64,000 nt of DNA from a virus. The notes under the pieces are model-generated. The model ran no database searches, had not been told where the DNA came from, and was given only the letters and a program-made list of their open reading frames with translations. Shown here piece by piece: positions 4,135-47,442 of this stretch (the first letter of the stretch is position 1; each line of letters begins with the position of its first letter). Position numbers and translations under genes: made by a program. The stretch is from the IMG/VR virus record IMGVR_UViG_3300019458_000022; one strand, written 5' to 3'.

Positions 4135-4163
4135 CGCCGTCTCCCTAAAGACCCCCTCTCTAC

Positions 4164-4179
4164 CGCAAAACGTGTGCCA
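4164..4179 (-). promoter_or_regulatory. sigma54 promoter 2 (TGGCACACGTTTTGCG)
   Basis: consensus match ~30 bp upstream of GHKL start; CTGCCA/TGACAG/TGGCAG at ~4243-4268. Confidence 0.85.
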
Positions 4180-4281
4180 TACTGGATATCATACACAAAC
4201 CTCAAAATCACGCGAAAAACGAAGGTCGCTCGTGCGGGCGCCCTGCCAGGGGGGTGACAGGATGGCAGCCGGGAACGGGGC

Positions 4282-4617
4282 CTAGCTATCCTTGTCCCGG
4301 GCGCCCTTTCTCTCCTCCACGGCCCTCCGGTGCCAGGCCCGGTTGTTCATGATTTGGTGGAACGTATCGAGGGCGTCCACGGCGATCTTCACGTTGTACA
4401 TCAGCCGGTCCCGGATGCGTTCGAGCGTGACCGGATCGTCGGTATCGTGGTCGTACGGCACCGGCCGGTGATGAAAGGCCCGGTACCGGGACCGGTCCAC
4501 GACGACGATCTCGATCCTGCGATCGCCCTCCTCGTCGCGCCCGAAGGTCTCGCGCGCAAGCGCCTCGACCTGGCGCTGGAAGGTCTCGATCTTCTTCTCG
4601 TCCAGGAGGTCACGCAT
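4282..4617 (-). CDS. hypothetical protein
   Basis: ATG 4617 overlapping upstream gene end. Confidence 0.65.
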   Translation of the reverse strand: MRDLLDEKKIETFQRQVEALARETFGRDEEGDRRIEIVVVDRSRYRAFHHRPVPYDHDTDDPVTLERIRDRLMYNVKIAVDALDTFHQIMNNRAWHRRAVEERKGARDKDS

Positions 4618-4879
4618 CGGTTGTTCCTCCGGCATCCTGGCCGAACGCGCACGCATGGCTTCCCTGCGTCCATCCGCAAAGGCGGCAGCAATCGCCGCGC
4701 CGGTACTCCTCGATCGCCTTCCTCACGTCCGGGTCGTTCAAGGTCGCCTCCTCGTCGAACTCCCCGAGCCATTTCCAGCCCTTCCTCTGGAGCGGATCGA
4801 CGAAGAAGTTCCCGTCCCTCCGTTTGAGAAGGAAGGCGCCGTCCTTGGCCAAAAGATGGGTCTTCGGGTCGTGATGCAT
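4610..4879 (-). CDS. hypothetical protein with C-terminal CxxC...HxC
   Basis: ORF track; packing. Confidence 0.6.
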   Translation of the reverse strand: MHHDPKTHLLAKDGAFLLKRRDGNFFVDPLQRKGWKWLGEFDEEATLNDPDVRKAIEEYRRGDCCRLCGWTQGSHACAFGQDAGGTTDA

Positions 4880-4948
4880 GGGCTTACCCGATCTGTTCCA
4901 GGTGGACGAAGAGGGAGACGTGACGGGTATGGAGGGAGTTCGACATGT

Positions 4949-9721: not shown

Positions 9722-11428
9722 TCATGCCTGGCCTCCCTCGAACGGAATCCCTTCCTCGCCTCCCCAGAAGTCGCCGTGGCGGTCGCAGCGGCACTTCGGG
9801 CAGACCTCGGTCTTGGGCGCGTTATAGGTCCCGCACCCGTAGCCTCCGCACTTGACGTAGCCCTTGGGGGTCCCGCAGACGTCCTCGACGCCGGGCTCTC
9901 CGGGGCGCGCGACCTTGTTCGTGCAGGTCTTGGCCTTCCGCACGTTGTACTGGAAGCACCTGTTGCACCGCCAGGACTTGAGGTCGTGCCCGCACTCGCA
10001 GACCTTGACCTCGGGCCGGTTGACGTGCGAGCAGGCCAGGCAGCACCAGGAGCCGCGCGCGGTCCCGCAGTGGCAGGTGTCGGCCGGGTTCTCGGAATGG
10101 GGGACGTTCTCGCTGCGGCAACGGTTGTCCGGGCAGAACCAGGTCCCCTCGACCGCGCAGCGCGTGAGGACCGTCTGCTTGATCCCCTTGTACTCGTCAT
10201 GCTTCTTGACCGTGGCCTTGATCTGGTAGGTCTTCCCGACCTCAAGCTCGCCGTTCGTCGCGAACCAGGTCACGACGTTCCCCTTGGGGTCCACCATCTT
10301 GTGGATGTAGGTGACGCCGAACTCGCTCTGCGAGTTGATGACCTTCGTGACCGTCAGCGTGAAGACCTCGCGCGCGCCGACCGTCCCGAAGTGCTCGCTC
10401 TTGGCCTCCCGCTCGTACCGGATCTTCTGCTCGGCCACGAAGCCCATCTCGCGCTTGTAGACGGTGATCAGGCTCGCGGCGATCCCGAAACCCTTCTCGA
10501 CGACCGCGTCCCGGGAGCAGACCGCCACGAGGTTGAACTCGTAGTCGTTCTTCTCGGCCTTCTCGGCGAGGGTCCCGCGGAGCCACGCGAGCGCGTCCTG
10601 GGCGAGCTTCGCGTCCTCGGTCACGGGGACCGGGGGCTGCTCCTTGGCGCCGGGGAAGGGAGTCATCCACGCGAACGCGAGGTCGGCCGTGGCCGACCGC
10701 ATCTCGCCCTCGGGAAGCTGCCGGGCCTTGGACCGGGAGAGCCAGCCCTCGGTCCGGACGGCGAGCGCCACGTAGGAGAGGTAGTCGGCGAGCCAGATCA
10801 CGCGGGCGCCGCCGCCCCATCCAGCGCCCTCGGCCTCGGAGAGGACGTCGCCCACCGACAGGAGGTACTCGGCGGCCTGGAGGATCTGCTCGGGGTCCTG
10901 GTGCCCAAGGAAGTCGGCGATGCACTGCCGTCCGACCTGCTTCCACTCCCCGTTCTCGTTCCGGACGACGAAGGTCTCCTTCCGGCGCCGGAGGTACCCG
11001 CAGTGGTCGCAGGTAGCCTTGGCCTCGCGGTAGGTCTTGGGAAGCTCCTTGCCCGGCACCGCCCGGAGGAGGACAGCCGCGTCGTTCTCGCCGTTGGCGG
11101 CCAGGTGCTGGATCGTGCCCATGAACTCCCACCCGGCGAACTTGGGGGTCCCCCCCTCGATCGAGACCTCGTAGACCACCTTGGTCCGGGTGACGGGCTT
11201 GCCGTCGCCGTCCCGGAGGACGGAGACGCCGTCCGGGTCCAGGTTGTCCCGGACCGGCTCCTCCCGCTTGATGGGCTCGGAGACCTTGAGGACGACCGGC
11301 GGGCAGCCGATCTTGTCCGCCCGCTTCACGAGCGCCAGGATGCGCTCCTGGAGCCGGGGCAGGTTCTCCGCCGGGATCAGGTGGACCTTGGGGTCCTCGG
11401 CCATCTTCGTCTCCGCGTTTGTCAGCAT
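9722..11428 (-). CDS. phage-type protein with OB-fold-like domain and multiple C-terminal Zn ribbons
   Basis: SEHFGTVGAREVF...IKATVKKHDEYKGIKQTVLTRC; WFCPDNRC, WCCLACSHVN, WRCNRCFQYN, CGTYN...CPKC. Confidence 0.75.
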   Translation of the reverse strand: MLTNAETKMAEDPKVHLIPAENLPRLQERILALVKRADKIGCPPVVLKVSEPIKREEPVRDNLDPDGVSVLRDGDGKPVTRTKVVYEVSIEGGTPKFAGWEFMGTIQHLAANGENDAAVLLRAVPGKELPKTYREAKATCDHCGYLRRRKETFVVRNENGEWKQVGRQCIADFLGHQDPEQILQAAEYLLSVGDVLSEAEGAGWGGGARVIWLADYLSYVALAVRTEGWLSRSKARQLPEGEMRSATADLAFAWMTPFPGAKEQPPVPVTEDAKLAQDALAWLRGTLAEKAEKNDYEFNLVAVCSRDAVVEKGFGIAASLITVYKREMGFVAEQKIRYEREAKSEHFGTVGAREVFTLTVTKVINSQSEFGVTYIHKMVDPKGNVVTWFATNGELEVGKTYQIKATVKKHDEYKGIKQTVLTRCAVEGTWFCPDNRCRSENVPHSENPADTCHCGTARGSWCCLACSHVNRPEVKVCECGHDLKSWRCNRCFQYNVRKAKTCTNKVARPGEPGVEDVCGTPKGYVKCGGYGCGTYNAPKTEVCPKCRCDRHGDFWGGEEGIPFEGGQA

Positions 11429-11439
11429 GCCCTCTCTAT

Positions 11440-11455
11440 TGCAAAACGTGTGCCA
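11440..11455 (-). promoter_or_regulatory. sigma54 promoter 4 (TGGCACACGTTTTGCA)
   Basis: consensus; A-tract inverted repeat CTCAAAAAC...GTTTTTGAG; CTGCCA-N3-TGGCAG at 11558-11572. Confidence 0.85.
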
Positions 11456-11577
11456 CAGTAGCTACTGTTTAACCCCTCAAAAACGAGCGAATTTCGAGGT
11501 TTTTGAGGGTTCCGGACTGCCATGGGGGTGCCCGGACTGGCTGTCAAACCGGCCTGCCTGCCACGGTGGCAGCCGCT

Positions 11578-12615
11578 TTAGCCCGGCGGGAACGCGCTCC
11601 GCGTGGCCCTTTTCCAGCCTGGAGGAGGCCGCCAAGGAGGGAGGGGCTCCGCGAAGACCTCCTCCACGGGGTAGAGGGGCTCCCTCTGGAACAGCATGTA
11701 TACATCATGGGTCGGTTCGCCTGGACGGGTGTCGATCCTGGAATCGAACCAGACGATCCCGTCGTAGTTCGCGCGCTCGATGTTCTCGCGGAAGTCCCGG
11801 ATGTAGTCCGCGTCTAGCAGGAGAGCCTGCATGATCCGGGAGGCTCGGTGGTCGAAACGCGCGGTCCCCGGCGGATGGACTTCCAGATGCTCGAAGTCAT
11901 CCGGCGCAAGGTGCTCTCGCGCCCTCGGCCAGTTGAGGAAGAAGGCGTCGAAATCGTCGGTGTGCGCTTCCAGGTAGCGCCCAGCCGGAAGCTCGAAAGC
12001 GTAGACGATCGGCCCGTAGAACGTCCTCGCATGGATCGGCGAGGATGTGAACCAGGTGCCCATCGAGTTGTAGTTCCGGATGGGTCTTGGATCGAGCCGA
12101 TCGAGCGGCTTGTGGCTGGCGAAGTAGACGATCGTTTCCGGAGGCCCTTCCAGCGAGGCCGGAGGAGGAAAACTGAGGACGTACCGGCCGTAATCGAAGT
12201 TCCGGTCCTCAAGCTCTGGAGGCCCCGGGACCTCCCAAAACGCGCGCCCCTTCCGGACCTGTTTGTGCCAGAACTCGGCCGCTTCGTCTGAAAGCACCGT
12301 GTCCGAACAGAGCGCGACGCCGCTTTCCGCCGACAGGCGCGCGGCCTCCTCGTAGAGCGCCGTCCCAACCCCGGTCCGCCGCCATGCCGGATAGACTTCG
12401 ATGCCGGAGACCTGGTAGCAGGCGGTCCTCGGCTCGAACGGGCGACCCCTCCCGCCTACGACATCGCCCTTCCGAATGGTGATCCAGCCCACTTGCTCAT
12501 AGCCGGTATGCTGGCGGGGAACGAAAGCCGAGATGCTTATGGTGTTGTGCCTGGGCTCCAGCCCTCGGTACCGGAACACTAGCTCCTTTCCGGCCCTGGT
12601 CAACCTCACGTCCAT
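11578..12615 (-). CDS. GNAT acetyltransferase fused to an ADP-ribosyltransferase-like (polyvalent-type) domain
   Basis: IEVYPAWRRTGVGTALY (GNAT motif A); GTWFTSSPIHARTFYG and YDGIVW resemble ART-PolyVal; ART call weaker. Confidence 0.6.
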   Translation of the reverse strand: MDVRLTRAGKELVFRYRGLEPRHNTISISAFVPRQHTGYEQVGWITIRKGDVVGGRGRPFEPRTACYQVSGIEVYPAWRRTGVGTALYEEAARLSAESGVALCSDTVLSDEAAEFWHKQVRKGRAFWEVPGPPELEDRNFDYGRYVLSFPPPASLEGPPETIVYFASHKPLDRLDPRPIRNYNSMGTWFTSSPIHARTFYGPIVYAFELPAGRYLEAHTDDFDAFFLNWPRAREHLAPDDFEHLEVHPPGTARFDHRASRIMQALLLDADYIRDFRENIERANYDGIVWFDSRIDTRPGEPTHDVYMLFQREPLYPVEEVFAEPLPPWRPPPGWKRATRSAFPPG

Positions 12616-14624: not shown

Positions 14625-14642
14625 ACACACGTTAACAAGTGT
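14625..14642. promoter_or_regulatory. palindromic operator 1 over sigma70 promoter TTGCTT-N17-TAACGT (minus)
   Basis: ACACACGTTAACAAGTGT. Confidence 0.7.
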
Positions 14643-24147: not shown

Positions 24148-24163
24148 TGCAAAACGTGTGCCA
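24148..24163 (-). promoter_or_regulatory. sigma54 promoter 6 (TGGCACACGTTTTGCA)
   Basis: consensus; shares GTTTTTGAGGGTTCCG with promoter 4; CTGCCG-N3-TGGCAG at 24235-24249. Confidence 0.85.
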
Positions 24164-24213: not shown

Positions 24214-24519
24214 TCAGGGCTCCACGCTGCCTGCCTGCCGTGTTGGCAGTCGGATGGGCCTGTCAGGTGGCAGGAAGTAGCAGTAGGGAGGGTAGGGGGC
24301 GGGAACCTCGGTCCCGCCCCCCCTCCCCTTGACGACGTGGGTCACGCCGATGGGCTTCCCGTCCTTCCGGCGGGTGTCGTAGATCCAGGCCCAATCGACG
24401 TCCGGACGCTCGGCGAGTTCCTGGACGCGGCGCAAGGCCCTCCGGAGGAAGGTGAACTCGCTGTCGCGCCTTCCTGGCCGGTGGGTACCTGGACCGAAGT
24501 ACCAGGTCTCGTAGGCCAC
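24214..24519 (-). CDS. hypothetical protein (3' end overlaps candidate enhancer)
   Basis: GTG start right after upstream stop. Confidence 0.45.
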   Translation of the reverse strand: MAYETWYFGPGTHRPGRRDSEFTFLRRALRRVQELAERPDVDWAWIYDTRRKDGKPIGVTHVVKGRGGGTEVPAPYPPYCYFLPPDRPIRLPTRQAGSVEP

Positions 24520-24522
24520 GTT

Positions 24523-25014
24523 CTAGGAGAGCGTGCGGATGACGCGCCGGAGCTTCTTGGCCTGGGCGCCGAGGAGCTTGGCCTGGGCGCCGTAGAGCCG
24601 CGCCTGGCGCTGGCTCTCGACGGCCTTGGTCATGATCTTCTGGAGCGCCGCCTTGAGGTACGGCGCCGCGCCGTTCATGACCGCCCGGACGCCGCTCTTG
24701 GAAGACGCCTTCCGGCGAGGCTTCTTCTGGGCCTTCGCCGCGGGCTTCCGCCTGGCGTGCGGCTTGGCCTTCTTCGGCTTCTTCCGCCGTCCGTGTCCGT
24801 TCATCGACCCTCCGGGCTTCGAGATCCCGAGGGCCTTCTTCCGGATCTTCCGGACCATGTAGAGGGACACGTCCAGGCCCTCCTTCTCCTTGAGGAGCCC
24901 GACGATGTCGGCGTCCTTGCGCCCGGCCCGGACGTGCTTCCGGACCTCCTCCAACAGCTTCTTCTCCGCTTCCCCCCGCACCCCGGCAGCCTGAGCCTGA
25001 GTTGCGGTCGCCAT
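24523..25014 (-). CDS. basic K/A/R-rich nucleoid-associated-like protein
   Basis: HTH-like N-terminus; KKPKKAKPHARRKPAAKAQKKPRRK linker; GGAGG RBS. Confidence 0.7.
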   Translation of the reverse strand: MATATQAQAAGVRGEAEKKLLEEVRKHVRAGRKDADIVGLLKEKEGLDVSLYMVRKIRKKALGISKPGGSMNGHGRRKKPKKAKPHARRKPAAKAQKKPRRKASSKSGVRAVMNGAAPYLKAALQKIMTKAVESQRQARLYGAQAKLLGAQAKKLRRVIRTLS

Positions 25015-25063: not shown

Positions 25064-26227
25064 CTATTCCTCGACGCGGTACTCCTTGCCGACCGCTTCG
25101 ACGAGATCGCGGCCCTTCTCGTAAGGCTCGATGAACTTCCGGAAGAGCACCGAATCGCCCTCTTCAGCGATGACGAACGGCCGCTCCTCCTCAGCCAGGT
25201 TCTTCCGAAGCTTCCAAAATGAATGCCAATGGGCACGAACCATGAAACGGAAAGAGACCGTCCAGGTCTTCCCGGTCCGGTTCGGGGCCGCGCTCCCGCA
25301 GTTCTTCGGGAGCTTGACGTTCCGGCCGACGTCGATGTAGTCGATCCGGGTGTGGTTCCTGGCCTCATCCAGGAACCGCTGCCGCTGGTTCTCGTTCGTC
25401 TGACGTCCGGCACGCTCGACGAGGCGGTTTCCCTTGGCGACGACCGGAGCCAGATCCGCCCCGAGCGAGTTGATGTAGAGCACCGCGTTCATCGCCAGCC
25501 GCGTGATCAGGCTGTAGTCGTTGCAGGCGTCGGCGATCATCTCCCGTTCACGCTTCTCGAAAAAAACATCGCTGATGACGAAGTCTTCGGCAAGGCCCTC
25601 TAGCTCGAACCAGTTGGCGGCCGAGTTGCCGACCTTGCGGCCTTTGAACTCGATGATTTCCGAGTAGAAGAGGAACTTGATGACGTGCTTCTCGTGGATG
25701 TAGGCAGGGTTCGGCTCGCGCCCGGCCATGACGTCGTTCCAGACCTCGATCCGCTGCTCTTTCGTCGTGTGCTTTTCGGAATCCGCGCTGTCGGACATCT
25801 CCGTGACGAAGCAACCGTCGAGCCGGGCGCGGGACCCGTCCGCGCATTCGAGTTCAACGGGGGCATTCTCGAACCGGGTAAGGAAGCAGCGGAAAGGGAG
25901 CTTGAGGAACCGCTTCTGGACCTTGAGATCGGTGTTGAGGAGGAGATGCGTCAGGTTCGGAGACACGTTGAAGACCTTCTTCCCGGCGCTCCAGAAGTTG
26001 AAGAGGGTCTGTTCCGTTTCGAGAGAAAGCGACGGCTGGAAGTTCGGGATGTACTCCTGGCCGTGGTTTACGATGTCCTTGGCGATCGGGTCAAGCCGGA
26101 GCATCTCATGCTTCTTGATGAAGGGGGGGACCTTGATCCGGTCCCTGAGCGCGCGGAAGCGCTGGTCGAAGTTGACCCGCATGGAGGCGTACTCGGCCTC
26201 CATGACTTCGTAATAGGTCGGTCTCAT
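25064..26227 (-). CDS. AcrVA2/FinQ-like phage protein, paralog 2
   Basis: FWSAGKKVFNVSPNLTHLLLNTDL...LKLPFRC; LYINS; IDVGRNV; MVRAHWHSFW; FIEPYEKG; clear paralog of 12711-13898. Confidence 0.5.
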   Translation of the reverse strand: MRPTYYEVMEAEYASMRVNFDQRFRALRDRIKVPPFIKKHEMLRLDPIAKDIVNHGQEYIPNFQPSLSLETEQTLFNFWSAGKKVFNVSPNLTHLLLNTDLKVQKRFLKLPFRCFLTRFENAPVELECADGSRARLDGCFVTEMSDSADSEKHTTKEQRIEVWNDVMAGREPNPAYIHEKHVIKFLFYSEIIEFKGRKVGNSAANWFELEGLAEDFVISDVFFEKREREMIADACNDYSLITRLAMNAVLYINSLGADLAPVVAKGNRLVERAGRQTNENQRQRFLDEARNHTRIDYIDVGRNVKLPKNCGSAAPNRTGKTWTVSFRFMVRAHWHSFWKLRKNLAEEERPFVIAEEGDSVLFRKFIEPYEKGRDLVEAVGKEYRVEE

Positions 26228-26246
26228 CCCGAGGTTCGCATTTCTC

Positions 26247-26531
26247 CTATGAGCCGTTGTCCTTCTTCTTCGACTCCAGGAGAAGCTCGATCGCCTTGCG
26301 AGCGAGGGGCGATGGATGAGACTGCCCGCGCAGCCAGCGCTCGACGGTGTACTCCCGGACGCCGATCTTCTGGGCGAACTCCTGGAACGTCATTCCGCTC
26401 TTCTTGAGGAGGCCCTGCATCTCCTTGGCGAGCGCGGAATCCTTCCTGGGCTGTTCCTTGCTCTCGGCGGGCTTCCGGGGGCTTGGCCGCTTCGCGCCCT
26501 CTTTCCCCGTAGTCACGTCGCCTTTCGTCAT
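26247..26531 (-). CDS. XRE-family HTH regulator
   Basis: GMTFQEFAQKIGVREYTVERWLRGQSHP; GAGGAGG RBS. Confidence 0.85.
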   Translation of the reverse strand: MTKGDVTTGKEGAKRPSPRKPAESKEQPRKDSALAKEMQGLLKKSGMTFQEFAQKIGVREYTVERWLRGQSHPSPLARKAIELLLESKKKDNGS

Positions 26532-26566
26532 GCCAGCCTTCCTCCTCAGAGGCACCCCCGTATCCT

Positions 26567-26584
26567 ACATCTGTTAACAATTGT
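26567..26584. promoter_or_regulatory. palindromic operator 2 in promoter TTGACA-N17-TAGGAT (26562-26590, minus)
   Basis: ACATCTGTTAACAATTGT. Confidence 0.8.
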
Positions 26585-26696
26585 TGTCAAGCTCGATTTG
26601 CGAGGGAGTGGATCTCGCGGAAGGGAATCCGCGCGGCTCCGACCTTGTCGTTGGCCCGGCCGATCTCGGTCCTGGCGTCGGTCAAGTCCTCCATGG

Positions 26697-28306: not shown

Positions 28307-28651
28307 CTACGCTCCTTCGCCCCATGGGGGGTTCTTGGCCTCCGCTTTGTCCGGGAAGTTCTCCTTCCGGGCCTCGTCGATCATGCGGTTGACGTGCGCG
28401 ACTTCGGCTTCGTACTTGCCGCGCTTCATGGTGTCGGTCAGCTTCTGGAGCCACGAGGACGCACGGGGACCGTCTCGGCCGGTGCATGGTTTCGGCCAGA
28501 TCCCGCCGAAGACGGGCCAACAGGTAGCCTCGGCCTCAAACCCGGCCGCGAACAGGACCGCCTGGACGGCCTTGACCCGGTCCTCATCGGGATGTCCATG
28601 GTCCTGGATCGCGAAGTACACGAAGGCCGCTCCTGGACTTGGGGTTGTCAT
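28307..28651 (-). CDS. hypothetical protein
   Basis: ATG overlapping upstream TGA. Confidence 0.6.
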   Translation of the reverse strand: MTTPSPGAAFVYFAIQDHGHPDEDRVKAVQAVLFAAGFEAEATCWPVFGGIWPKPCTGRDGPRASSWLQKLTDTMKRGKYEAEVAHVNRMIDEARKENFPDKAEAKNPPWGEGA

Positions 28652-29103
28652 GCGGAGCCCCTCGCGCACGCCTGGACTTCCGACGCGAAGCGCTCGCCGC
28701 AGGTCTCGTCGATCTCCTCGTCCTTTTCGATCTCGATGACGACCGAGATCCCGATCTTGAGCGAGAAGACGAGGTCTCCTTTCGGGACCGGCTGCTCGCA
28801 GAGCAGGCAATCCTTGCCCTTGGACTTCCGGAGGGAGAGCTTGTAGGCGCCGTCCACCTTCTTCCGGCTGAGGATGGCTTGCGCCATTTCCTGTCCGCAC
28901 GCGATATGGATCTCCTCGTTCTTCGGGATCTTGATCAGACCGAGCCCCAGCGGATTCAGGCTCATCCGGAGGTTGAAGACGTCCTGGCCCGCGGCGATCC
29001 CCTCCTTGCAGAGGAGGCATGCCTTGGACCCGGACGCCGTCCTCCGGTCAAGCCGATAGAGGGGTTCGCCCACCCGGATCTTGCCCTCGCACGCGCCGAT
29101 CAT
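28648..29103 (-). CDS. tandem PARP-type-like Zn-finger protein
   Basis: two repeats: KACLLCKEGIAAG...IHIAC and KDCLLCEQPVPKG...IDETC. Confidence 0.7.
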   Translation of the reverse strand: MIGACEGKIRVGEPLYRLDRRTASGSKACLLCKEGIAAGQDVFNLRMSLNPLGLGLIKIPKNEEIHIACGQEMAQAILSRKKVDGAYKLSLRKSKGKDCLLCEQPVPKGDLVFSLKIGISVVIEIEKDEEIDETCGERFASEVQACARGSA

Positions 29104-29120: not shown

Positions 29121-29138
29121 ACAGATTTTAACACCTGT
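29121..29138. promoter_or_regulatory. palindromic operator 3 over promoter TTGACG-N16-TAAAAT (minus)
   Basis: ACAGATTTTAACACCTGT. Confidence 0.7.
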
Positions 29139-36899: not shown

Positions 36900-36917
36900 A
36901 CAAATGTTAACAGATGG
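36900..36917. promoter_or_regulatory. palindromic operator 4 over promoter TTGACA-N17-TAACAT (minus)
   Basis: ACAAATGTTAACAGATGG. Confidence 0.8.
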
Positions 36918-38111: not shown

Positions 38112-38921
38112 TTATTTTGGTTCAGCGTCTGTTCGTGGTGTAACGACTAAACGAGAGATTGAAAACGATCCATTGCAAATGCTCAAAAAAAGACTTGGAT
38201 TCCTGGAAGCGCGGCCTCCATCTAAGCCAACACGACCGTAATCAGCCTTCCAGTTAATGAGGGCTTTTGCTTGGACGGTCACAACCACTCGATCCTTACG
38301 GACCGAGCAGATGATGGTTCTCGGTTGCTTATCGGTGAAGATGCGGCCGTTGACACCGGTCTCGTTCGCGTGGGGAAGCTTAGCGTCAACCGTCCGTAAT
38401 CCGCTTACCGTGCCCTTTAAGCAATCCAGGCTCACGCCGAATTGCCTTCCACCCCCGACAAGACCGATGACGAGTTCACCATCACCGTCCTTGCGCTCTG
38501 CAACAACCTCAACGTCATACTGATCTACTGGAATATGAGGTAACTCCAGCCAGATCGGTGTATCCGCCGTAGTTGTTGCCCCTGTAAGCTTACCGCTCCC
38601 TGTCCTCCACTCAGACGTGGCTCCCGCCTTCTTGAGGTCGATGGCTGAGAGCACGTTCACCGGAGACGATGCCGCCTTGGTGATATCTCCAGTGAACGTG
38701 GCCCCAGTAAGCGGCGCCTTGGGGATTGAACTCCGTATTTCCTTGATGTCCTTCTTGGCTATGGTAATTGTCTGGTTGTCCACCGTCTGAACTTCCAGGG
38801 TATCGCCGTTGTCCTTGATGATGCGCCATTCGATGGAGGTTCCGTTCTTGAGTACGAGCGTATCACCCAGAGCCGAATGCGCACAAACCAGGACCGCGGC
38901 CAGCGCCCACATCTGCCTCAT
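38112..38921 (-). CDS. secreted protein with lectin/beta-sandwich-like C-terminal domain
   Basis: signal peptide (ALAAVLVCAHSALG), DTLVLKNG, YDVEVVAERKDGDGELVIGLVGGGRQF; lower GC. Confidence 0.7.
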   Translation of the reverse strand: MRQMWALAAVLVCAHSALGDTLVLKNGTSIEWRIIKDNGDTLEVQTVDNQTITIAKKDIKEIRSSIPKAPLTGATFTGDITKAASSPVNVLSAIDLKKAGATSEWRTGSGKLTGATTTADTPIWLELPHIPVDQYDVEVVAERKDGDGELVIGLVGGGRQFGVSLDCLKGTVSGLRTVDAKLPHANETGVNGRIFTDKQPRTIICSVRKDRVVVTVQAKALINWKADYGRVGLDGGRASRNPSLFLSICNGSFSISRLVVTPRTDAEPK

Positions 38922-38944
38922 CTGGTCACCTCGCCCTAAACCAC

Positions 38945-38962
38945 ACACATTATAACATCTGT
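38945..38962. promoter_or_regulatory. palindromic operator 5 over promoter TTGAAC-N17-TATAAT (minus)
   Basis: ACACATTATAACATCTGT. Confidence 0.7.
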
Positions 38963-38973
38963 GGTTCTACGGT

Positions 38974-39954
38974 TCAAACGTTTTCGCCTTTCCCGCTCGC
39001 AACGAGATCGTCCACAAGGCGTTTTATTCTGGGCCTGTTCTCAGACCAATTCGACAGTTGCAGGAGTCGCGTACGAGCCGAAGTCCCCATCCTTCGGTTC
39101 TCTGCGGGATCGCTTAATCTTCGGATAAAACCGAGGAGAGGGTCCAGTCTTTCGGTGGTTGCGTGGAAGCACGTTTCCCCATCCTTGAATAGCATCGTCA
39201 TCTCAGTGCTTCTTAGGAAGTCGCGCCCAAGGATTACTGGAACGCCCAGCAGAACGGCTTCCATGACAACATACCCTGGCGTGTCGGTAGGCTTCGGATG
39301 AAATAACACCTTCGCAGCGCGCAGATGTTCGAGGAACTGGTCGTGCGGTATTTCCCTAGACCATTCAGGCGGACCCCCTCCATAAAGCTGTAGCTGCGCC
39401 TCCGGATGATCCCGCAGGACTTCGAGGAGTGGAACATTTGACCAGCCCTGAGCATTCTTTATGGCCGTTACTACGTGAGGGCCAAACGAGGATCGCTCGG
39501 AGCAGTTAAGAAGTTGTGGGTACGGGGGCCACAAAAACTCCACAGGACACAGCCTCATTTCCCGAATAACACGTCCTATGGCGGGATTGAAAGCCATGAC
39601 GGATACGCCCTTGCCTGGGCGAAAGTTCTTTTCAACCCAGTCAGGCCAGCATGGCCAAAGCCAATAGATCAAATAAGGTCCCATCCAGCCGAGGCCGCGA
39701 AGCCGTTGTTCGGTCTCCGGCATCGTATCGACAAAAAGTGCATCCTGCGGCATGTCCTTAAATTCCATGATACCGCGAACGTATGGGGTCTTTCTGACAG
39801 ATTGTTGCATGTATCCATGGTGATAGAAAATCGGAAGAAACGTGCTGAAGGACGGTCCCGCAACATAGACGTCGAACCCAAGATCATTGAGAATCCACGC
39901 GCAAATCTCGTATCCAATCGCATGCGTGTCATTAACTACCGCGAGTCTACCCAT
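38974..39954 (-). CDS. GT-B glycosyltransferase (GT4-like)
   Basis: AKVLFHPKPTDTPGYVVMEAVLLGVPVI. Confidence 0.75.
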   Translation of the reverse strand: MGRLAVVNDTHAIGYEICAWILNDLGFDVYVAGPSFSTFLPIFYHHGYMQQSVRKTPYVRGIMEFKDMPQDALFVDTMPETEQRLRGLGWMGPYLIYWLWPCWPDWVEKNFRPGKGVSVMAFNPAIGRVIREMRLCPVEFLWPPYPQLLNCSERSSFGPHVVTAIKNAQGWSNVPLLEVLRDHPEAQLQLYGGGPPEWSREIPHDQFLEHLRAAKVLFHPKPTDTPGYVVMEAVLLGVPVILGRDFLRSTEMTMLFKDGETCFHATTERLDPLLGFIRRLSDPAENRRMGTSARTRLLQLSNWSENRPRIKRLVDDLVASGKGENV

Positions 39955-39966
39955 GGATCGCTTCCC

Positions 39967-40575
39967 CTACATTCCACCCTTTACCACAACCCCAAACCCA
40001 AACCCTGTGTGAAGGTGATTGAATTCACTCTTGGGTTCGCGTACCGCGTTCCAGAATCTTTCCATGTCTGAATTCATGTGTATGTCGTCGCAGAGCACAA
40101 AGCCACCATCCCGGACAATAGAGCCATAGACCGCGTATTCAGCGAGAACCCTCGCAAAGACATGATCGGAGTCCAGGTACAGCAGGTCGATTGCCTTACA
40201 GCGTTTTTCGACTTCCGCAAAGGCCGCTATTGAATCACCGGTAATGGCGACGATGTTAGCGACCGAAAGTGCCGCAACTCGCTTGGAACACTCCGGATCT
40301 ATATCTACGCTAATGACAATCCCGGCCGGATTAGCCACAGCCATTTGTGCCGCGGAACACCCTAACCGGGTCCCAGTTTCGACGCATGTGACGCCGGACC
40401 TCGCGCTAATTGTTTTGGTTAGCTCATAAAGGAACCGATAGTAAAGGCAAATATCGGGTCCTCCTTCGACATGCTTCTTCGCCCACTCGGGTCGTTCATC
40501 TTTAATGTCGTGAAGTCCAGCTACAAGTTGTGAGACCTGCTTGAGGAGGATGTCTGCGGACACGGATCGCCTCAT
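39967..40575 (-). CDS. class I SAM methyltransferase (Methyltransf_24-like)
   Basis: VETGTRLGCS, IDLLYLDSDH, GGFVLCDD. Confidence 0.85.
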   Translation of the reverse strand: MRRSVSADILLKQVSQLVAGLHDIKDERPEWAKKHVEGGPDICLYYRFLYELTKTISARSGVTCVETGTRLGCSAAQMAVANPAGIVISVDIDPECSKRVAALSVANIVAITGDSIAAFAEVEKRCKAIDLLYLDSDHVFARVLAEYAVYGSIVRDGGFVLCDDIHMNSDMERFWNAVREPKSEFNHLHTGFGFGVVVKGGM

Positions 40576-40639
40576 TGCTATCGTTCGGAAAAGCGGGCCA
40601 TTCTGCTGTATCTAGGGTTTCCGCGTATATCAACGTGCT

Positions 40640-41650
40640 TCATGCGCCGCTCAGTAACGATATCCACTGTTGCTTGAGCGCCATCCAGGAATAGTTCTTT
40701 TCAACTCGCGCACGCGCCAGGTTTGATAGCTCCGTGATGTCCGTCCGATACAGCCTCAGCACCGTCCGCGTGAGCGCCGCTGATGACCCCACGTAGGACG
40801 GAAGCCTCTTCCCGTAGATGACGGGATGTTCCACGCGGTCAACAGGCACAAGAAGATCCGGCGCCAGTTCATTCATTGGCTCCGCATCAACGGCGATGAC
40901 GGGCAGTCCGCAAGCTTGTGCTTCGAGAAGTGTGACGCCCACGCCTTCAAACCTGGAGAACTGTACGGCCACATCTCCCGTAACGAACAGACCAGCAGGA
41001 TCTGGAGTGCTTCCGATCTGGAAGCCGACGCCAAATGGCATGTTTGTCTCGTAGGGCTTCTGCTGGGCCCGGAAGACCAAGGGAGGCTTCCCCATGAACG
41101 TCTTCCAAGCCATGAAGATCTGCGGAAGACCGCGTCGATTCTCGGCTCCTCCATAGCCGTAGACGGAGATAAAGGTCTCCGCGCGCTCACGGAGCCGGAA
41201 TTTGAAAAGGTCTGTGTCGATGGGAACGGGGAGCAGCGCGGCCTTGAGCCCGTAGTTCTTTTCAAGCTCCCGTTGGCACATCGCGTTCGGGGCGACGAGG
41301 TCGGCTTCCTTCCACAACGCCATGTGCTGCGGCGCGAACCAATCCCAATGGACGACATGGACCCATCGGATGCCGTGCCTCTTCCAGATTCCCGGGTACT
41401 CCCAACCACCCGGGATTTCCCAGGTCAGGATAGTGTCCGGCTTGTAGGTCTCGATGAACTTCTCCATCTCCGTGGGAGCCTGCGGCTTCGATGCGAGATG
41501 GTGCTTGACTTTCTCCAGGAGGTCTCGGCGTGTGGGTTTTCCAGCGTTCTGGAGCACGAACGCGGCCTCGACGGGAAGGTGATTCACCGCGTCGAAAAAC
41601 TCCCGGCCCAAGCCGGAATCGTTGGCCCAACCGACCAGCGCCAGACGCAT
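40640..41650 (-). CDS. GT4 glycosyltransferase
   Basis: SRFEGVGVTLLEAQACGLPVI. Confidence 0.85.
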   Translation of the reverse strand: MRLALVGWANDSGLGREFFDAVNHLPVEAAFVLQNAGKPTRRDLLEKVKHHLASKPQAPTEMEKFIETYKPDTILTWEIPGGWEYPGIWKRHGIRWVHVVHWDWFAPQHMALWKEADLVAPNAMCQRELEKNYGLKAALLPVPIDTDLFKFRLRERAETFISVYGYGGAENRRGLPQIFMAWKTFMGKPPLVFRAQQKPYETNMPFGVGFQIGSTPDPAGLFVTGDVAVQFSRFEGVGVTLLEAQACGLPVIAVDAEPMNELAPDLLVPVDRVEHPVIYGKRLPSYVGSSAALTRTVLRLYRTDITELSNLARARVEKNYSWMALKQQWISLLSGA

Positions 41651-41668
41651 TGCGAATCGTTCCTTTCG

Positions 41669-42712
41669 CTAATCCGTCAAGCAGAACCTGATCCCTTCAA
41701 GAGCCCGCTCTCGAAGGTCCGACAGGGTTTCCCTTGGAACGACGCATGCGTCCCGCCTGATCTCATTCAGCCGTTCCAACGTGAGCGGGAGCGTGGCGCA
41801 CGGAACCGAGAGAACGCGAGCGAGGGCCGTCAGCTTCGAGGACCGGCCGACGATCGCAACCCTGCATCCGGCCCAGGCCGCGGCCAGAAGACAATGATAC
41901 CTGGAACTGACCAGGGTTTCACATTCCGAAATCGGCCTGACAAGATCCTCGACCGACCCTGTCCTATAGGGAGGCACCGAAAGCTCGGCGTTCGGAAGGT
42001 ATCCCTCCTGGCGTAGCTCCCTGTAGACGTAGACCTCGTGGAGCGGAATCGACCGGACGTCGCCCGCGATGAACGAGGTTGGGGCTCCCTCTCCATCAAC
42101 GAACGACGCGAAAACTCTCACGTCCTCTCGGCTCAGCGTGTCGGCCATGAGCACGGTGCCGAGCGGGTACCTCCGTTCCGGCTTACGGTCTTTGAAGAGA
42201 TAAGCCAGGCTGATATTCGCGAGATCCGCAGCCGGGAGCACGCGCTCCTTTGGAACTCCCACGGCGCCGGTGATGATGCCGTAGCTATGGTCGTCCCGTG
42301 TCGAGATCCGGTCGAAAAGGGCGGCCACCGGTTTATGGGCCCCGGCCCAAGGCAGCATTTCGGATTCCGCGCCCGCGCAGACCATGATCTTCCGGGCATG
42401 GGCTCCGATCTCATCCTTCCGGGCGACGAGCACCCGAAGCACCTGATCTCCCCACGTCGCCTGAAACGGCGTATCCCCCACCGCGGCCCAGATACACGAC
42501 GACCGCGGAGTCGGGCAGATCGTGTCCCATAGGATTTCAGGGCAGCGGAGGCGCTGGGATGCGGGGTCAGAGGTGCGCGGTCCGTAGACGCATCTGCGGT
42601 CGAGCCCGAGTTCCTTGAGTCCCCTGGCGAACCCGGAGATCATGATGTCGTCGCCGATATTCCCATATCCGAAAAGGTCGAGCCCTATCGTGATTGGAAG
42701 TCCCGTTTTCAC
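41669..42712 (-). CDS. polysaccharide pyruvyl transferase family protein
   Basis: GYGNIGDD, ISTRDDHS, PAADLA, VSSRYHCLLAA. Confidence 0.8.
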   Translation of the reverse strand: MKTGLPITIGLDLFGYGNIGDDIMISGFARGLKELGLDRRCVYGPRTSDPASQRLRCPEILWDTICPTPRSSCIWAAVGDTPFQATWGDQVLRVLVARKDEIGAHARKIMVCAGAESEMLPWAGAHKPVAALFDRISTRDDHSYGIITGAVGVPKERVLPAADLANISLAYLFKDRKPERRYPLGTVLMADTLSREDVRVFASFVDGEGAPTSFIAGDVRSIPLHEVYVYRELRQEGYLPNAELSVPPYRTGSVEDLVRPISECETLVSSRYHCLLAAAWAGCRVAIVGRSSKLTALARVLSVPCATLPLTLERLNEIRRDACVVPRETLSDLRERALEGIRFCLTD

Positions 42713-43458
42713 TCGTACCTGGCGTCGATCACAATCTGGTTATAGGATTCGTAGTTGCACCGTGCATCCACGTCTGCTGAATCGTACCCCCAGTCCCAGA
42801 CGTGGTAGTACGGCCGCGTCCGGACGGCCGCGGCGATGATGCTGGGGGCCGAATTGACCGTGAAGAACTCTTCCGCTTCCTCGATCAGCCGGGGCAGGTG
42901 CGCCACGCTCGTGGCCGTAAGCACCGGCACGGGGCAATCGACTACGGGTTTGTCGCTCAGGCAGAACACTTTCCAACCAGGGCCGAATCGCTTGCGTACC
43001 TGGTCGAGAAACCACGCGATCGGAGGATTCCTCGGCTGGCTGTACCCGAACGGGGAGATCAGGATGTACGGGCGAGGAAGGCCGTAATCTGGAACCTCGA
43101 CCGCGTGATAGCGATCGAAGGTCACATTATGGTTTCGAGGGACGCCCTGGAGTTCGGGGAAGGCGTCTGTCACGTAATCCTTGATCTTGCTCCTCGCAAA
43201 GTGGAAGTCGAGCGCCATCGTATCGAAGACCGTATCCGGCTCTCCCCATACCGGAGTCCACGGGCATACATAGGAGACGAGATCGAAGATCGCATGGTGA
43301 CGTTCCGGGCATTCGATAGCAACCTGGTGTCCGGATCTGGCCAGATAAAGGGCCGGGGGGAAGCAGAAAAGCGCGTCTCCGAGACGTTTCCTGGACTTGA
43401 AGCAGTAGCGCATCCTCTTCAGGAGCCCCACTGCCATTCGTCCACGCGCTTGTTCCAT
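42709..43458 (-). CDS. putative GT9-like glycosyltransferase
   Basis: RLGDALF, YILISPFG, LIEEAEEFFTVNSAPSIIA. Confidence 0.55.
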   Translation of the reverse strand: MEQARGRMAVGLLKRMRYCFKSRKRLGDALFCFPPALYLARSGHQVAIECPERHHAIFDLVSYVCPWTPVWGEPDTVFDTMALDFHFARSKIKDYVTDAFPELQGVPRNHNVTFDRYHAVEVPDYGLPRPYILISPFGYSQPRNPPIAWFLDQVRKRFGPGWKVFCLSDKPVVDCPVPVLTATSVAHLPRLIEEAEEFFTVNSAPSIIAAAVRTRPYYHVWDWGYDSADVDARCNYESYNQIVIDARYE

Positions 43459-44039
43459 TCGGGCTTGTTGTGGATTCCATGAATCATGATGACGTCCGGC
43501 TTCCAGACGATCGCCTCTTCCTTCCCGGGCCAGAGCGCGACCGTGCGTTGGATGAATTCGAGGTCACCTTCGTAGTACAGGCCCCACAAGCCGAGCCGTT
43601 CAGGGACATAGGGGCAGACGATCATCTGCGTGCTCACGTTCTGTATCCTCACCACGGGCTCGCGCCAAAGGACGGTCCCTTCATGGTGCATCCGGAATAG
43701 GATGGGACGGTCCGGATTCTCCTCGATCGCCTTTCGCGCGATAGAAAGCGCGTTCGGCGCCATCCGATCGTCGTCGTCGCACGTCATGAAATGGGTGCTT
43801 TTGATGAGTCGCATCGCCCAGTTCCGTTGCGAATGGCCCCAATCCTTGGTCGGCCCGTACTCGTAGTAGACGATTCGCCGATCCAGGCCCTCGATCATCG
43901 CACGCGCCTCCGGTTGAGGGCCGTCCCCGACCACGATCACCCGGTCGCATTCCCCCAGTTGAGGCATCGCTTCAAGGGCCACGCGCTTGAGCGTGGGTCT
44001 CCCGATCGTCGGGATGATGATCGTCAGTGAAATATCCAT
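43419..44039 (-). CDS. GT2 glycosyltransferase
   Basis: TIIIPTIGR, VIVVGDG, FMTCDDDD. Confidence 0.85.
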   Translation of the reverse strand: MDISLTIIIPTIGRPTLKRVALEAMPQLGECDRVIVVGDGPQPEARAMIEGLDRRIVYYEYGPTKDWGHSQRNWAMRLIKSTHFMTCDDDDRMAPNALSIARKAIEENPDRPILFRMHHEGTVLWREPVVRIQNVSTQMIVCPYVPERLGLWGLYYEGDLEFIQRTVALWPGKEEAIVWKPDVIMIHGIHNKPEWNKRVDEWQWGS

Positions 44040-44054
44040 CGTCCCTCTTCGAGC

Positions 44055-44726
44055 CTACCCGGAGAGCATCCACTTCGCGCGGAAGGCTTCCTCCGCCTCC
44101 CGCTCCAGGGCTCCGAGGCCGCCACCGTACTTCTCCATGAAGACCGACTTGATCCGGATGTTGTGCTCGACGACGACCCTGGGATCGACGCCGATCGAAA
44201 GACCGGCCCTCTTTGCGCGCACGCAATAATCGGTGTCATCGTAGCCGTAACCCGGGAACCGGTCCTCCAGGAAACCGACCATGTTGACTACCACGCGCGA
44301 GATGTAGACGCAGACGAAGGAGACGAACGGCACCTCGACCGCGGCCTCGCCTTCCCGCTGCCACGGGGGTCCGACACGACCGCGGATCGCCGCCGACAGC
44401 ACCCGCATGCAGGCGGTTTCGGACAGGAGATCGAAAGCGTTCCGCGTGACCACCTCGACGTCGTCGCCCATCACGACCGCGTCGAGCGGCGCGATCGCCT
44501 CCAGACCAAGATTCACGCGGCGCGCGAACGAGAACTCCTCCTTCGGGTCCTGAACATACGTGAGTTCCCGAAGGAGCGGAGGCGCGTCTTTCTCGTTGAG
44601 GGAACGACTGACGACGTGGATCTCATGGGGGCTTAGATCCGGATGGGCCAGGAGCACCGAAAGCGCGCTCAGCCGGAGGTGTTCGAAGGAATCCGAAGGG
44701 ATGACGACGGCCCAGCGTCTTTTCAT
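44055..44726 (-). CDS. GT2 glycosyltransferase
   Basis: FSFARRVNLG, VMGDDV, GYGYDDTDYC. Confidence 0.8.
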   Translation of the reverse strand: MKRRWAVVIPSDSFEHLRLSALSVLLAHPDLSPHEIHVVSRSLNEKDAPPLLRELTYVQDPKEEFSFARRVNLGLEAIAPLDAVVMGDDVEVVTRNAFDLLSETACMRVLSAAIRGRVGPPWQREGEAAVEVPFVSFVCVYISRVVVNMVGFLEDRFPGYGYDDTDYCVRAKRAGLSIGVDPRVVVEHNIRIKSVFMEKYGGGLGALEREAEEAFRAKWMLSG

Positions 44727-44734
44727 GGGCTCTC

Positions 44735-45430
44735 CTATTCCAGGTCTTCTCCGGGCGCAGGAAGATTGAACTTCGGCCGTTGCCGGGCGTCGTCGTAGAT
44801 CCCGGCGACCTTGGCTTCGGCCGTGCTTACGCCCCACTTGTGGAAGCACGCGGCGTGCGCGGCGATCCCGATGTCCATCCCAGCCTCAATGAGCCTTAGG
44901 TTGAAATCATAGTCGTTCCCCGCGAACGCGATGTTCTCGTCAAAGCCTTTGATCGCCTTCCACGAGGACCGGCGGATGACCGTGCAGTGGCCCGGCGCGA
45001 ATCTCCGGTCCTTTCCAAGGAGGAAACGCCGGGTCGGATGCAAGGTCTTGAGACGGTCAGTGAGGGCATCCATTCGACCGACGTCCTCCATAGTCGGCAC
45101 GCTGCCCTTGAAATGCTCCCTGTGCGCCTCGTGATTCGTCACTGGACTCGCGGCGCCGCAGGACGGATGCTCATCGAGGCACGCGATCACCTCCGTATCC
45201 CAGCCAGGGCCGACGATCACGTCCGGATTGAGGAGCGCGACGAACGCCCGGCGGCTTTGGCAGATAAACCGATTCCAGAGCCAGGTGAGCGGGTAGTTTT
45301 TGACCGTATTTTCGTACACGGTCAGCCGGTATCCGGGAGCGGACCAACGCGCGACGCTCGCCAAGGTATCGGCCAGCGCCTGATGTCCCAGGAATCCGAC
45401 GACGAAGATGTCGAGCTTCACGCGCGCCAC
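44735..45430 (-). CDS. GT2 glycosyltransferase
   Basis: ALLNPDVIV, GFDENI...NDYDFNLR. Confidence 0.85.
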   Translation of the reverse strand: MARVKLDIFVVGFLGHQALADTLASVARWSAPGYRLTVYENTVKNYPLTWLWNRFICQSRRAFVALLNPDVIVGPGWDTEVIACLDEHPSCGAASPVTNHEAHREHFKGSVPTMEDVGRMDALTDRLKTLHPTRRFLLGKDRRFAPGHCTVIRRSSWKAIKGFDENIAFAGNDYDFNLRLIEAGMDIGIAAHAACFHKWGVSTAEAKVAGIYDDARQRPKFNLPAPGEDLE

Positions 45431-46284
45431 CGGGTTTCGAGGAGGCCGATGAGCGTCCGCGCTCGCTCCTTCCAGTTATGGCGAAGCTGGACATGGTCGA
45501 AGCCCGCCCGGCGGATCGTCTCTCGGCCGGGATCATCGTCGATCCAGCGCCTGAGTTCTCCCTCAAGGGCGTCCAGGGAATCGAAGGTCGCAAGATGCTT
45601 GCCGATCTCGAATTGATCGGAGAGGCCCGGGACCGAAGGCGTGAGGAGAAACCCTCCGGCGCCCGGAATCACGTAGTTCCTGGACGACCAATAGCCAGGG
45701 ACATCCGACCGGGCGTTGTCGCCGACCACGACCTTCGTTTCCTGGACGTATTTCGCGAGGTCCCGGCCGTACACCCAGCCTCCCGGCTGGATGCGCGCTT
45801 CGCCCCCCAGCTTCATCACGAGCTTCGCGATCGCGCGGCGCCGGTCGTTATAGAGGCTCCCGAGCCAGGCGCAAGGGCGTTTCGGCTTCGGATCGAACTC
45901 GACCGGTACGCCTTCGCATGCGCCGGGAAGGTAAACGTGGTTCCGGATTCCGTAGACGCCCTCCCAATCGAATTCGTCGGAACTTACGAACAGCGTGGCC
46001 GTCCGCGCGATCTCGATCATGTCGTCCCGGTTGAAGAAGGGCAGCCAGTCGAGCGTCCAGAAGATCGTCCGGTGCGTCCTGGACCACACGCTGAGTTTCG
46101 AGCGCGAGTCCGGATGGCCCGAGAAGAATGCCCAGTCGGCGTCCGCGGGCGGGTTGGCAGGAACAGCCGGATTCACCCGGATCACCTGGACGCCGATCTT
46201 CTCAAGGGCATCGGCGAAGTAAGCCTCGTCAGGATGCTGACCCCATCCCCAGCGCTCGAATTGCCCGATGACCGCGATTTTCAT
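45418..46284 (-). CDS. CgeB-like GT-B glycosyltransferase
   Basis: WLGSLY, WSSRNYVIPGAGGFLLT, HNWKERA. Confidence 0.75.
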   Translation of the reverse strand: MKIAVIGQFERWGWGQHPDEAYFADALEKIGVQVIRVNPAVPANPPADADWAFFSGHPDSRSKLSVWSRTHRTIFWTLDWLPFFNRDDMIEIARTATLFVSSDEFDWEGVYGIRNHVYLPGACEGVPVEFDPKPKRPCAWLGSLYNDRRRAIAKLVMKLGGEARIQPGGWVYGRDLAKYVQETKVVVGDNARSDVPGYWSSRNYVIPGAGGFLLTPSVPGLSDQFEIGKHLATFDSLDALEGELRRWIDDDPGRETIRRAGFDHVQLRHNWKERARTLIGLLETRWRA

Positions 46285-46307
46285 GGGTCCCCCTCTCCTC
46301 CGGAATC

Positions 46308-46571
46308 CTAGTTTTTGGGAATCTCCTTTGAGAGCGCTTCGAGGCTGTCCAGGACCGCCAGGTTCTTCCGGATCATCGCTGTCGCCGCATCAAATGCATC
46401 GCCAGCGCATTTGTCCCAGTCGGCCCTGCTCGTGGGATTCCTCGCCTGGATGATGCCGATGAGCGCCTGTCCGGCATAGTACTGAAGGAGCGACATCCCG
46501 ACCGACGCCGTTCCGCCCGGGAACGCATGACCGCCGTTCCCTCTGTACCAGAAATCCTCGATTTTTCCCAT
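46308..46571 (-). CDS. small conserved phage protein
   Basis: HAFP...GMSLLQYYAGQAL...AFDAATAM. Confidence 0.7.
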   Translation of the reverse strand: MGKIEDFWYRGNGGHAFPGGTASVGMSLLQYYAGQALIGIIQARNPTSRADWDKCAGDAFDAATAMIRKNLAVLDSLEALSKEIPKN

Positions 46572-46574
46572 CGG

Positions 46575-47180
46575 TCACCTCGGCCTGAGAATGAAAAAAC
46601 CCTGATCCGGCCGCATCACCTGTAGATGGAACCGGTCGCGATGCGCTTCGGCGAACTCGTCCACGGCATGCTTGACCCCGACCCGGAGAGGCCACCGGGG
46701 ATCTTCGTGAAGATAGTAATCGTGGCCGCAGATCGTGCCGTCCCGGTCTATTTTTGGAAGCCACGCGGCTAGTTCGCGCCGGGTCTCCTCGATCTCGTGC
46801 GTCGTGTCGAGGAAGAATAGGCCGACGCTCCGGTCCGCCCAGTCCGAAGCAGCTTCGACGCTCGGTTCGACGCGGAAGGTCCAGAACTTCTCCAGTTCCT
46901 CGCGCTCGGTGCTCTTCCGAATCCCGATATTGGAAAGGACGCTTTCCCGGCAGGCGCCTTTGACGTCGTAGCTCCAGACGCCGTACTCGGCGCCCGAAAG
47001 TAGGGCGATCGTCGAAAAGCCGTTTCCGACCCCGCATTCGACGATGGGGCCGACCGAATGTCTGGCTAGGAGGGCGAGAAGAGGCATATGCGCGGCAATG
47101 TCCGACCCCCATTCGCGGGCTCCTCCCTCCATCCCGCGGAAAAGCGCGCCCAGAAGGAGTTTCCTCAGCCGTTCGCTCAT
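46575..47180 (-). CDS. class I SAM methyltransferase (Methyltransf_24-like)
   Basis: VECGVGNGFST, FFLDTTH, ICGHDY, GVKHAVDEF. Confidence 0.85.
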   Translation of the reverse strand: MSERLRKLLLGALFRGMEGGAREWGSDIAAHMPLLALLARHSVGPIVECGVGNGFSTIALLSGAEYGVWSYDVKGACRESVLSNIGIRKSTEREELEKFWTFRVEPSVEAASDWADRSVGLFFLDTTHEIEETRRELAAWLPKIDRDGTICGHDYYLHEDPRWPLRVGVKHAVDEFAEAHRDRFHLQVMRPDQGFFILRPR

Positions 47181-47398
47181 GACTTCTGCCCAGAAAGCGG
47201 TTTACCCGTGAAATCGGTCGCCTGATAGGCGTCGAGCGCGGCGCGGGCCGCCGCGAGCGCCTCCTGGGCCGCGTTGAAGGCGCAGACGCGGACGAGTTCC
47301 ATCTTTTCGGAATGAAGCGCGATCTCGGCCTGGCTTGCGGAGAACTCGGCCTTCTCCTTGGCGAGCTTGAGCGCCTCTCTCCACATCGAAAGCTGCAT
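47177..47398 (-). CDS. small coiled-coil protein
   Basis: GGGGAG RBS; Ala-rich helix. Confidence 0.55.
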   Translation of the reverse strand: MQLSMWREALKLAKEKAEFSASQAEIALHSEKMELVRVCAFNAAQEALAAARAALDAYQATDFTGKPLSGQKS

Positions 47399-47442
47399 GT
47401 CTCCCCCTATTGGGCACGCATGATAGACTTTCAGGAACGCTC

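Follow-up and report, generated by a model that had tools for sequence, protein, structure and literature searches.

The window, that is, the whole 64-kb stretch of DNA analysed, carries genes that lie nearly all on the minus strand, most of them small and without an assigned function. The cassette described in the earlier note was found in full: a sigma70 promoter containing a palindrome is followed by a small HTH gene (HTH1) and, 20 bp past its stop, by a gene for an AcrVA2-like protein (paralog 2). The promoter, TTGACA-17-TAGGAT, has a 17-bp spacer and agrees with the consensus at 10 of 12 positions; three sites with this score lie within 23.5–30 kb, compared with 0.5 in shuffles, and promoter strength is judged throughout from the consensus match only. 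The spacer is filled by the operator, a layout also seen in the relatives L001, L004, L079, L080, and L081. The coordinates of all features are collected in Table 1.

Table 1. Features of the cassette, operator copies, and further genes in the 64-kb window
Feature	Position	Strand	Remarks
−35 hexamer TTGACA of the cassette promoter	26585–26590	−	TTGAC kept upstream of HTH1 in L001, L004, L008, L079, L080, L081
18-bp operator, two 8-bp ACA-NN-TGT boxes	26567–26584		10-bp period, 2 bp between boxes; fills −35/−10 spacer
−10 hexamer TAGGAT	26562–26567	−	4/6 consensus
Shine-Dalgarno GAGGAGG of the HTH1 gene	26541–26547	−	Read from the sequence
HTH1 gene, 94 aa, XRE/HTH_3-type	26247–26531	−	Candidate master repressor
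AcrVA2-like paralog 2, 387 aa	25064–26227	−	AcrVA2/FinQ fold
163-aa Lys/Arg-rich protein	24523–25014	−	Third gene of unit; HTH-like N-terminus (lead only)
101-aa protein	24214–24519	−	Probable fourth gene of unit; 4-bp gap; 41% match in L007
Sigma54-type −24/−12 element	24149–24163	−	Opens next unit, bounds cassette
AcrVA2-like paralog 1, 395 aa	12711–13898	−	H-Q-V-R-G-H: H286 equivalent kept, R288 not
Operator copy	14625–14642		Heads operon of Zn-finger gene, 72-aa gene, and AcrVA2-like paralog 1
Operator copy	29121–29138		Over extended −10 of promoter at 29152; orthologous site in L001, L004, L007, L081
Operator copy	36900–36917		Heads operon with HD_4 phosphohydrolase and AAA ATPase
Operator copy	38945–38962		Before 278-aa protein with apparent signal peptide
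Three-box operator copy	51292–51319		Matches at 51292/51302; heads HTH2, 127-aa gene, Met aminopeptidase, AcrIII-1 homologue
Operator copy	52995–53012		Before peptide deformylase (52964–52461)
Operator copy	60578–60595		Heads operon containing DUF1643
HTH2, second XRE protein, 131 aa	50866–51261	−	Rival candidate for operator-binding repressor
AcrIII-1/DUF1874 ring-nuclease homologue	48921–49241	−	GHxxTA motif; in operator-headed HTH2 operon

The cassette unit probably extends over two further genes, encoding the 163-aa and 101-aa proteins, up to the sigma54-type promoter that opens the next unit. Between HTH1 and the AcrVA2-like gene lies a five-codon ORF (26224–26241) whose stop overlaps the AcrVA2-like start, and which possibly keeps the translational coupling that L001 has from a direct 4-bp overlap of the two genes. 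In L004, the AcrVA2-like gene is followed by genes for two tandem basic proteins with similar N-termini (11204–11599 and 11632–12072), of which the second matches the 163-aa gene of the window. Six near-identical sigma54-type −24/−12 elements on the minus strand (24163, 20548, 11455, 8595, 4179, and 2572), several of them with CTGCCA/TGGCAG palindromes upstream, make up a second promoter class that occurs only within 2.5–24 kb and is kept in L001, L004, L007, and L081.

The source contigs are 168–175 kb long, and the element size was put at 150–175 kb. The 341-kb contig of a relative (Ga0214473_10000007) contains two identical 20-kb stretches (L077 and L078); since these lie 151,716 bp apart, the unit of this relative is probably a circle of about 152 kb and the contig a repeated assembly. 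No virion gene family was found among the matches listed for the window genes (first 25 families), and the element is therefore named phage-like rather than phage. The best matches of the Met aminopeptidase (47–54%) are spread over several phyla and indicate no single host, and the weak Atlas leads for the 163-aa protein, all below 0.9, have Planctomycetota as their commonest taxon, which weakly suggests this phylum as the host. A lower-GC block (38112–48225) holds glycosyltransferase, methyltransferase, and pyruvyltransferase genes, and within it lies the sole plus-strand gene called in the window (47443–48225). In the relative L004, positions 317–673 gave a weak Pfam match to ribosome modulation factor (PF04957).

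The structure model of HTH1 is a four-helix XRE domain, and the protein matches Pfam HTH_3 with an E value of 3e-4, just under the curated cut-off, and a PHROG regulator with 7e-9. Among 10 homologues, its recognition-helix segment GVR[ED]YTVERW does not vary, in contrast to the termini; such an invariant helix would match the unchanged operator. The operator lies directly upstream of HTH1 in seven of the eight copies from the window and its relatives. Like an Aca protein, HTH1 is small and of the HTH type, and the core promoter of its operon contains a conserved inverted repeat. Searches by Pfam, NCBIfam, and PDB sequence gave no match to the known Aca families, and Aca1 ranked only 39th among generic XRE matches, with no specific Aca likeness. 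Weak resemblance was found to the antitoxin domains of MqsA, HigA, and HipB. There was no HTH1 relative in GTDB genomes, and GenBank phages gave only weak generic matches.

Paralog 2 carries PF26125 (AcrVA2-like) in the precomputed Pfam annotation and gave no match in local Pfam, NCBIfam, and PHROG scans. A profile of 136 sequences of the AcrVA2-like protein matches PDB 7CI1 (E 4e-6), and the structure model (pLDDT 90.9) has AcrVA2 as its sole strong structural match (Foldseek E 1e-7), with a VIA Z score of 16.8 against 7CI1 (rmsd 5.2, 264 aligned) and of 4.2 for the next match. Because the Pfam family, the profile match, and the structural match agree, paralog 2, as modelled, is a member of the AcrVA2/FinQ family. 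The claim of a second AcrVA2-like gene thus holds, and the two paralogs are 29% identical over their full length (E 1e-40). AcrVA2 from a Moraxella bovoculi prophage (PDB 7CI1/7CI2) and its homologue FinQ share with paralog 2 the overall fold, PF26125, an RGH-type motif with the H291 equivalent, and a location on mobile elements. Paralog 2 differs from AcrVA2 in its sequence (about 10% identity in the structural alignment) and in the replacement of H286 and R288 by F and V, and the present element has two paralogs, known from sequence alone.

AcrVA2 binds the N-terminus of Cas12a and lowers cas12a mRNA, the only mRNA reduced in a transcriptome; for mRNA down-regulation it requires the HxR motif (H286 and R288; bioRxiv 2022.11.29.518452) and it also needs H291. 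In the alignments to 7CI1, which as printed start at chain residue 109, past the AcrVA2 residues W79 and D89, F328-M-V330-R-A-H333 of paralog 2 aligns with H286-I-R288-R-G-H291 of AcrVA2. Across 136 aligned relatives, the R288 position is V in 128 and the H286 position is H in only 15, and the H291 equivalent, H333 in paralog 2, is kept as H in 129 of 136 rows. The V at the R288 position sets the FxVRGH proteins apart from AcrVA2 as a separate clade. Since two residues essential in AcrVA2, H286 and R288, are missing, paralog 2 is doubtful as a Cas12a inhibitor and is likely aimed at another target. Most AcrVA2 homologues are found without Cas12a, and other targets are considered possible (bioRxiv 2022.11.29.518452).

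In a quick version of the tree, the two paralog groups, each supported at 98–99, are sisters with a support of 95, which suggests that the paralogs stem from an old duplication in the lineage of the element. GenBank phages gave no match to the AcrVA2-like protein, and IMG/VR scans with both paralogs, both HTH proteins, and one conserved core gene gave no relative. The IncC plasmid NZ_CP055249.1 (L149) has an FxVRGH-type AcrVA2-like gene at 3154–4888, annotated as hypothetical, which comes after an RHH plus RelE/ParE toxin–antitoxin pair and before an integrase.

HTH1 followed by an AcrVA2-like gene, together with the TTGAC promoter and the operator, is kept in six of seven relatives (L001, L004, L008, L079, L080, and L081), whose AcrVA2-like proteins are 36–65% identical to paralog 2. 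In L007, HTH1 occupies the same syntenic place as the fourth gene of an operator-headed operon, with no promoter of its own and no AcrVA2-like neighbour, and is followed by the basic gene; the 163-aa gene is thus kept behind HTH1 even where the AcrVA2-like gene is missing. L005 has an AcrVA2-like gene as the second gene behind another operator promoter and has no HTH1. Since L007 has HTH1 alone and L005 the AcrVA2-like gene alone, the two genes can be separated, with both still inside the regulon. L005 and L007 come from the same sequencing run, have the same GC content, and may be one element.

The operator pattern, with up to two mismatches allowed, gave nine matches at eight promoters in the window, spanning 46 kb, compared with a shuffle mean of 0.29; no shuffle gave nine. 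The seven other sites counted in the earlier note are thus all present. The operator was found on all five sigma70 matches scoring 10/12 in the window and on seven of the ten intergenic matches scoring at least 8/12, and the promoter under the eighth site, at 14625, is weaker. Besides many genes without assigned function, the operator-headed operons contain genes for a deformylase, Met aminopeptidase, an HD_4 hydrolase, an AAA ATPase, DUF1643, and the second XRE protein. The operator also precedes the HD gene in L001. No terminator-like match was found between the operon of the 29121 operator and the HTH1 cassette toward which it runs. The HTH2-operon site is present in L147 and absent in L148, and the operator before the deformylase is not kept in L147.

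Anti-defence-type genes occur in two other operator-headed operons, namely AcrVA2-like paralog 1 and the AcrIII-1/DUF1874 homologue (PF08960, E 6.5e-21; PDB 2J6B, E 2e-12, and 6SCF, E 5e-4), whose family has been reported as ring-nuclease anti-CRISPRs, with its native role questioned. The suggestion that the operator sites mark anti-defence genes thus has some support from these copies but is not supported by those heading the deformylase, HD, AAA, and secreted-protein operons. Because it sits on all five 10/12 sigma70 matches and heads these other operons, the operator would mark a broad early regulon in which anti-defence genes are only a subset, and the sites would not be specific markers of them.

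The reading frame of the AcrIII-1 homologue is open upstream through a Cys-pair module (48921–49583), and L004 has a homologue upstream of its AAA gene. The deformylase (52461–52964) and the Met aminopeptidase (49601–50374) both process protein N-termini, and the gene of each lies in an operator-headed operon; the two genes are syntenic in L147, but there an operator directly precedes the aminopeptidase operon only. The 151-aa protein encoded at 28648–29103 consists of two similar Cys-rich halves; L004, L007, and L008 have versions with a single unit of about 76 aa, and the gene is usually the first of an operator operon.

Measured from the −35 element, the boxes keep to a fixed 10-bp lattice. 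They fill the spacer of the HTH1 promoter in six of seven cases, and reach across the extended −10 and the start region at most other operator promoters. The middle TGT-TA also serves as the extended −10 in most sites. The upstream ACA and the downstream TGT, which lie outside the −10, are also conserved, although the box-column counts are partly circular, since the sites were chosen by the pattern, and the shuffle test and the orthologous placement serve as independent evidence. Because these outer bases are conserved and promoters differ in register by one box, the boxes, judged by their sequence pattern, are more than a mere promoter consensus. The tandem ACA-NN-TGT after TTGAC also occurs in 68 IMG/VR viral contigs (L009–L076), nearly all unrelated; these were left out as relatives because none shares more than one gene. 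Their boxes often sit in longer GTTGAC-containing repeats. The operator-promoter pattern was absent in three unrelated bacterial genomes, a small sample that says little.

The reading that we favour, and to which we give an even chance, is that HTH1, as an autoregulated master repressor, controls an early or establishment regulon, and that the AcrVA2-like gene is cargo aimed elsewhere than at Cas12a. Every strong sigma70-like promoter in the window has the operator across its core, and one of these promoters precedes HTH1. On entry, the repressor-free DNA would be transcribed by the host sigma70 polymerase in a burst from all operator-bearing promoters, the early timing being deduced from promoter type alone. 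HTH1 would then build up, and its dimer would occupy two boxes spaced by one helical turn, blocking the polymerase and ending the burst. The spacer boxes at the HTH1 promoter, compared with the −10 and start boxes elsewhere, may give it a different threshold. The AcrVA2-like protein would be transiently expressed cargo; by its fold, it probably acts like AcrVA2, recognising a nascent polypeptide and setting off the decay of the mRNA that encodes it, with a target that is probably not Cas12a.

One operator over several dispersed strong promoters, including that of the candidate repressor itself, is the arrangement of a master-repressor regulon. The HTH1 regulon can be likened to those of the phage P1 C1 repressor and the IncP Kor proteins, in which a single element-encoded repressor acts on dispersed, promoter-overlapping operators. 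In its logic the proposed circuit would be Aca-like control scaled to a whole element, and it appears closest to the establishment regulon of the Bacillus plasmid p576, where Reg576 represses four establishment promoters, with less strict control of its own (PMC8708921). Both would have one autoregulated repressor (predicted here) acting on several strong promoters, tandem short boxes 2 bp apart, anti-defence genes among mixed cargo, and, presumably here as well, transient expression after entry. Reg576 differs in being a predicted ribbon-helix-helix protein with direct heptamer repeats that flank the promoter, whereas the present system has an XRE HTH protein and palindromic octamers inside the promoter, on a phage-like element of 150–175 kb.

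The operator could instead be bound by another protein of the element, such as HTH2, the 163-aa basic protein, or the product of a gene outside the window, with HTH1 merely regulated; we regard this as possible but rather unlikely. The earlier note left HTH2 and its three-box site unweighed. HTH2 belongs to the same element family and also heads a two-box site in L147, and HTH1 lacks its own promoter in L007. The true binder could also be encoded in the approximately 110 kb beyond the window, and the 163-aa neighbour, as a lead only, may bind DNA as well. However, neither a promoter nor an operator directly precedes the closest HTH2 homologue (L148, 64%), an operator is found in this place in only two of three HTH2 cases compared with the HTH1 count given above, and the recognition helix of HTH2 appears to have glycines at positions that usually read bases. 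Because of its upstream operator and the recognition helix unchanged among its homologues, HTH1 is favoured over HTH2 as the predicted operator binder. That the boxes are targets of a host transcription factor, such as one of the BlaI/MecI/CopY type, or are simply the promoter consensus of the element, is very improbable, even though the box core ACA-NN-TGT is that of the cop box (PMC7253601), the middle TGT-TA serves as a promoter element, the tandem core recurs in largely unrelated viral contigs, and host sigma54 appears to serve another class of the element's genes. The CopY/BlaI/MecI operator has the flanked consensus RNYKACANNTGTMRNY (PMC7253601), and none of the 29 perfect boxes fits KACANNTGTM, most having A/C before and T/G after the core; cop-box identity was therefore rejected, and a host factor of this type is unlikely. 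The register shift and the conserved bases outside the −10 are likewise not needed by a sigma consensus.

The earlier reading of the locus as a true aca-acr module, in which HTH1 is an Aca, the paralog an anti-CRISPR, and the operator-headed operons mainly anti-defence, appears improbable to us, yet part of it stands. As in aca-acr operons (Aca1–Aca14; PMC9410906, PMC13551039), a small HTH gene is co-transcribed with an Acr-like gene, an inverted repeat lies inside the core promoter, and extra sites lie at other operons; the AcrVA2-fold neighbour is kept in most relatives, paralog 1 and the AcrIII-1 homologue lie under other operator copies, and Aca proteins can control neighbouring operons (PMC13551039). 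What is not supported in the form proposed is the anti-CRISPR itself, since an AcrVA2-like protein without HxR leaves the operon without a verified acr, and the pairing, since L007 keeps HTH1 without an AcrVA2-like gene. Furthermore, HTH1 comes first in its operon, several operator-regulated genes are housekeeping-like, and reported multi-operon Aca control covers at most three clustered operons, compared with the eight sites here on nearly all strong sigma70 promoters. We would class neither HTH1 as an Aca nor paralog 2 as an anti-CRISPR. A toxin–antitoxin-like pair, with the AcrVA2-like protein as a translation-coupled mRNA-decay toxin and HTH1 as its antitoxin, would accommodate the antitoxin-like matches of HTH1, the gene overlap in L001, and the plasmid homologue that comes after an RHH-RelE pair, but it is extremely improbable, given that the two genes are separated in L005 and L007, that paralog 1 has no HTH neighbour, and that AcrVA2 lowered cas12a mRNA alone.

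Returning to HTH1 as master repressor, a bolder and decidedly unlikely extension is that the two paralogs of the FxVRGH clade act as nascent-peptide-guided effectors of mRNA decay on new targets, such as host defence or takeover genes, and are expressed in the same burst as the deformylase and the Met aminopeptidase; the missing deformylase operator in L147 weakens the co-regulation with the paralogs. If true, this would amount to an element-encoded toolkit at the ribosome exit, where deformylase and Met aminopeptidase act on the same protein N-termini, and would offer a way into the role of most AcrVA2 homologues in genomes without Cas12a. The targets of such homologues are an open question (bioRxiv 2022.11.29.518452), for which the cassette offers two divergent HxR-less paralogs whose expression appears to be timed by a defined operator, along with a short list of co-regulated genes. 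The locus also points to a limit of guilt by association: an HTH gene and a promoter palindrome beside an Acr-like gene can belong to an element-wide repressor, whose sites would mark early genes generally and anti-defence genes only in part.
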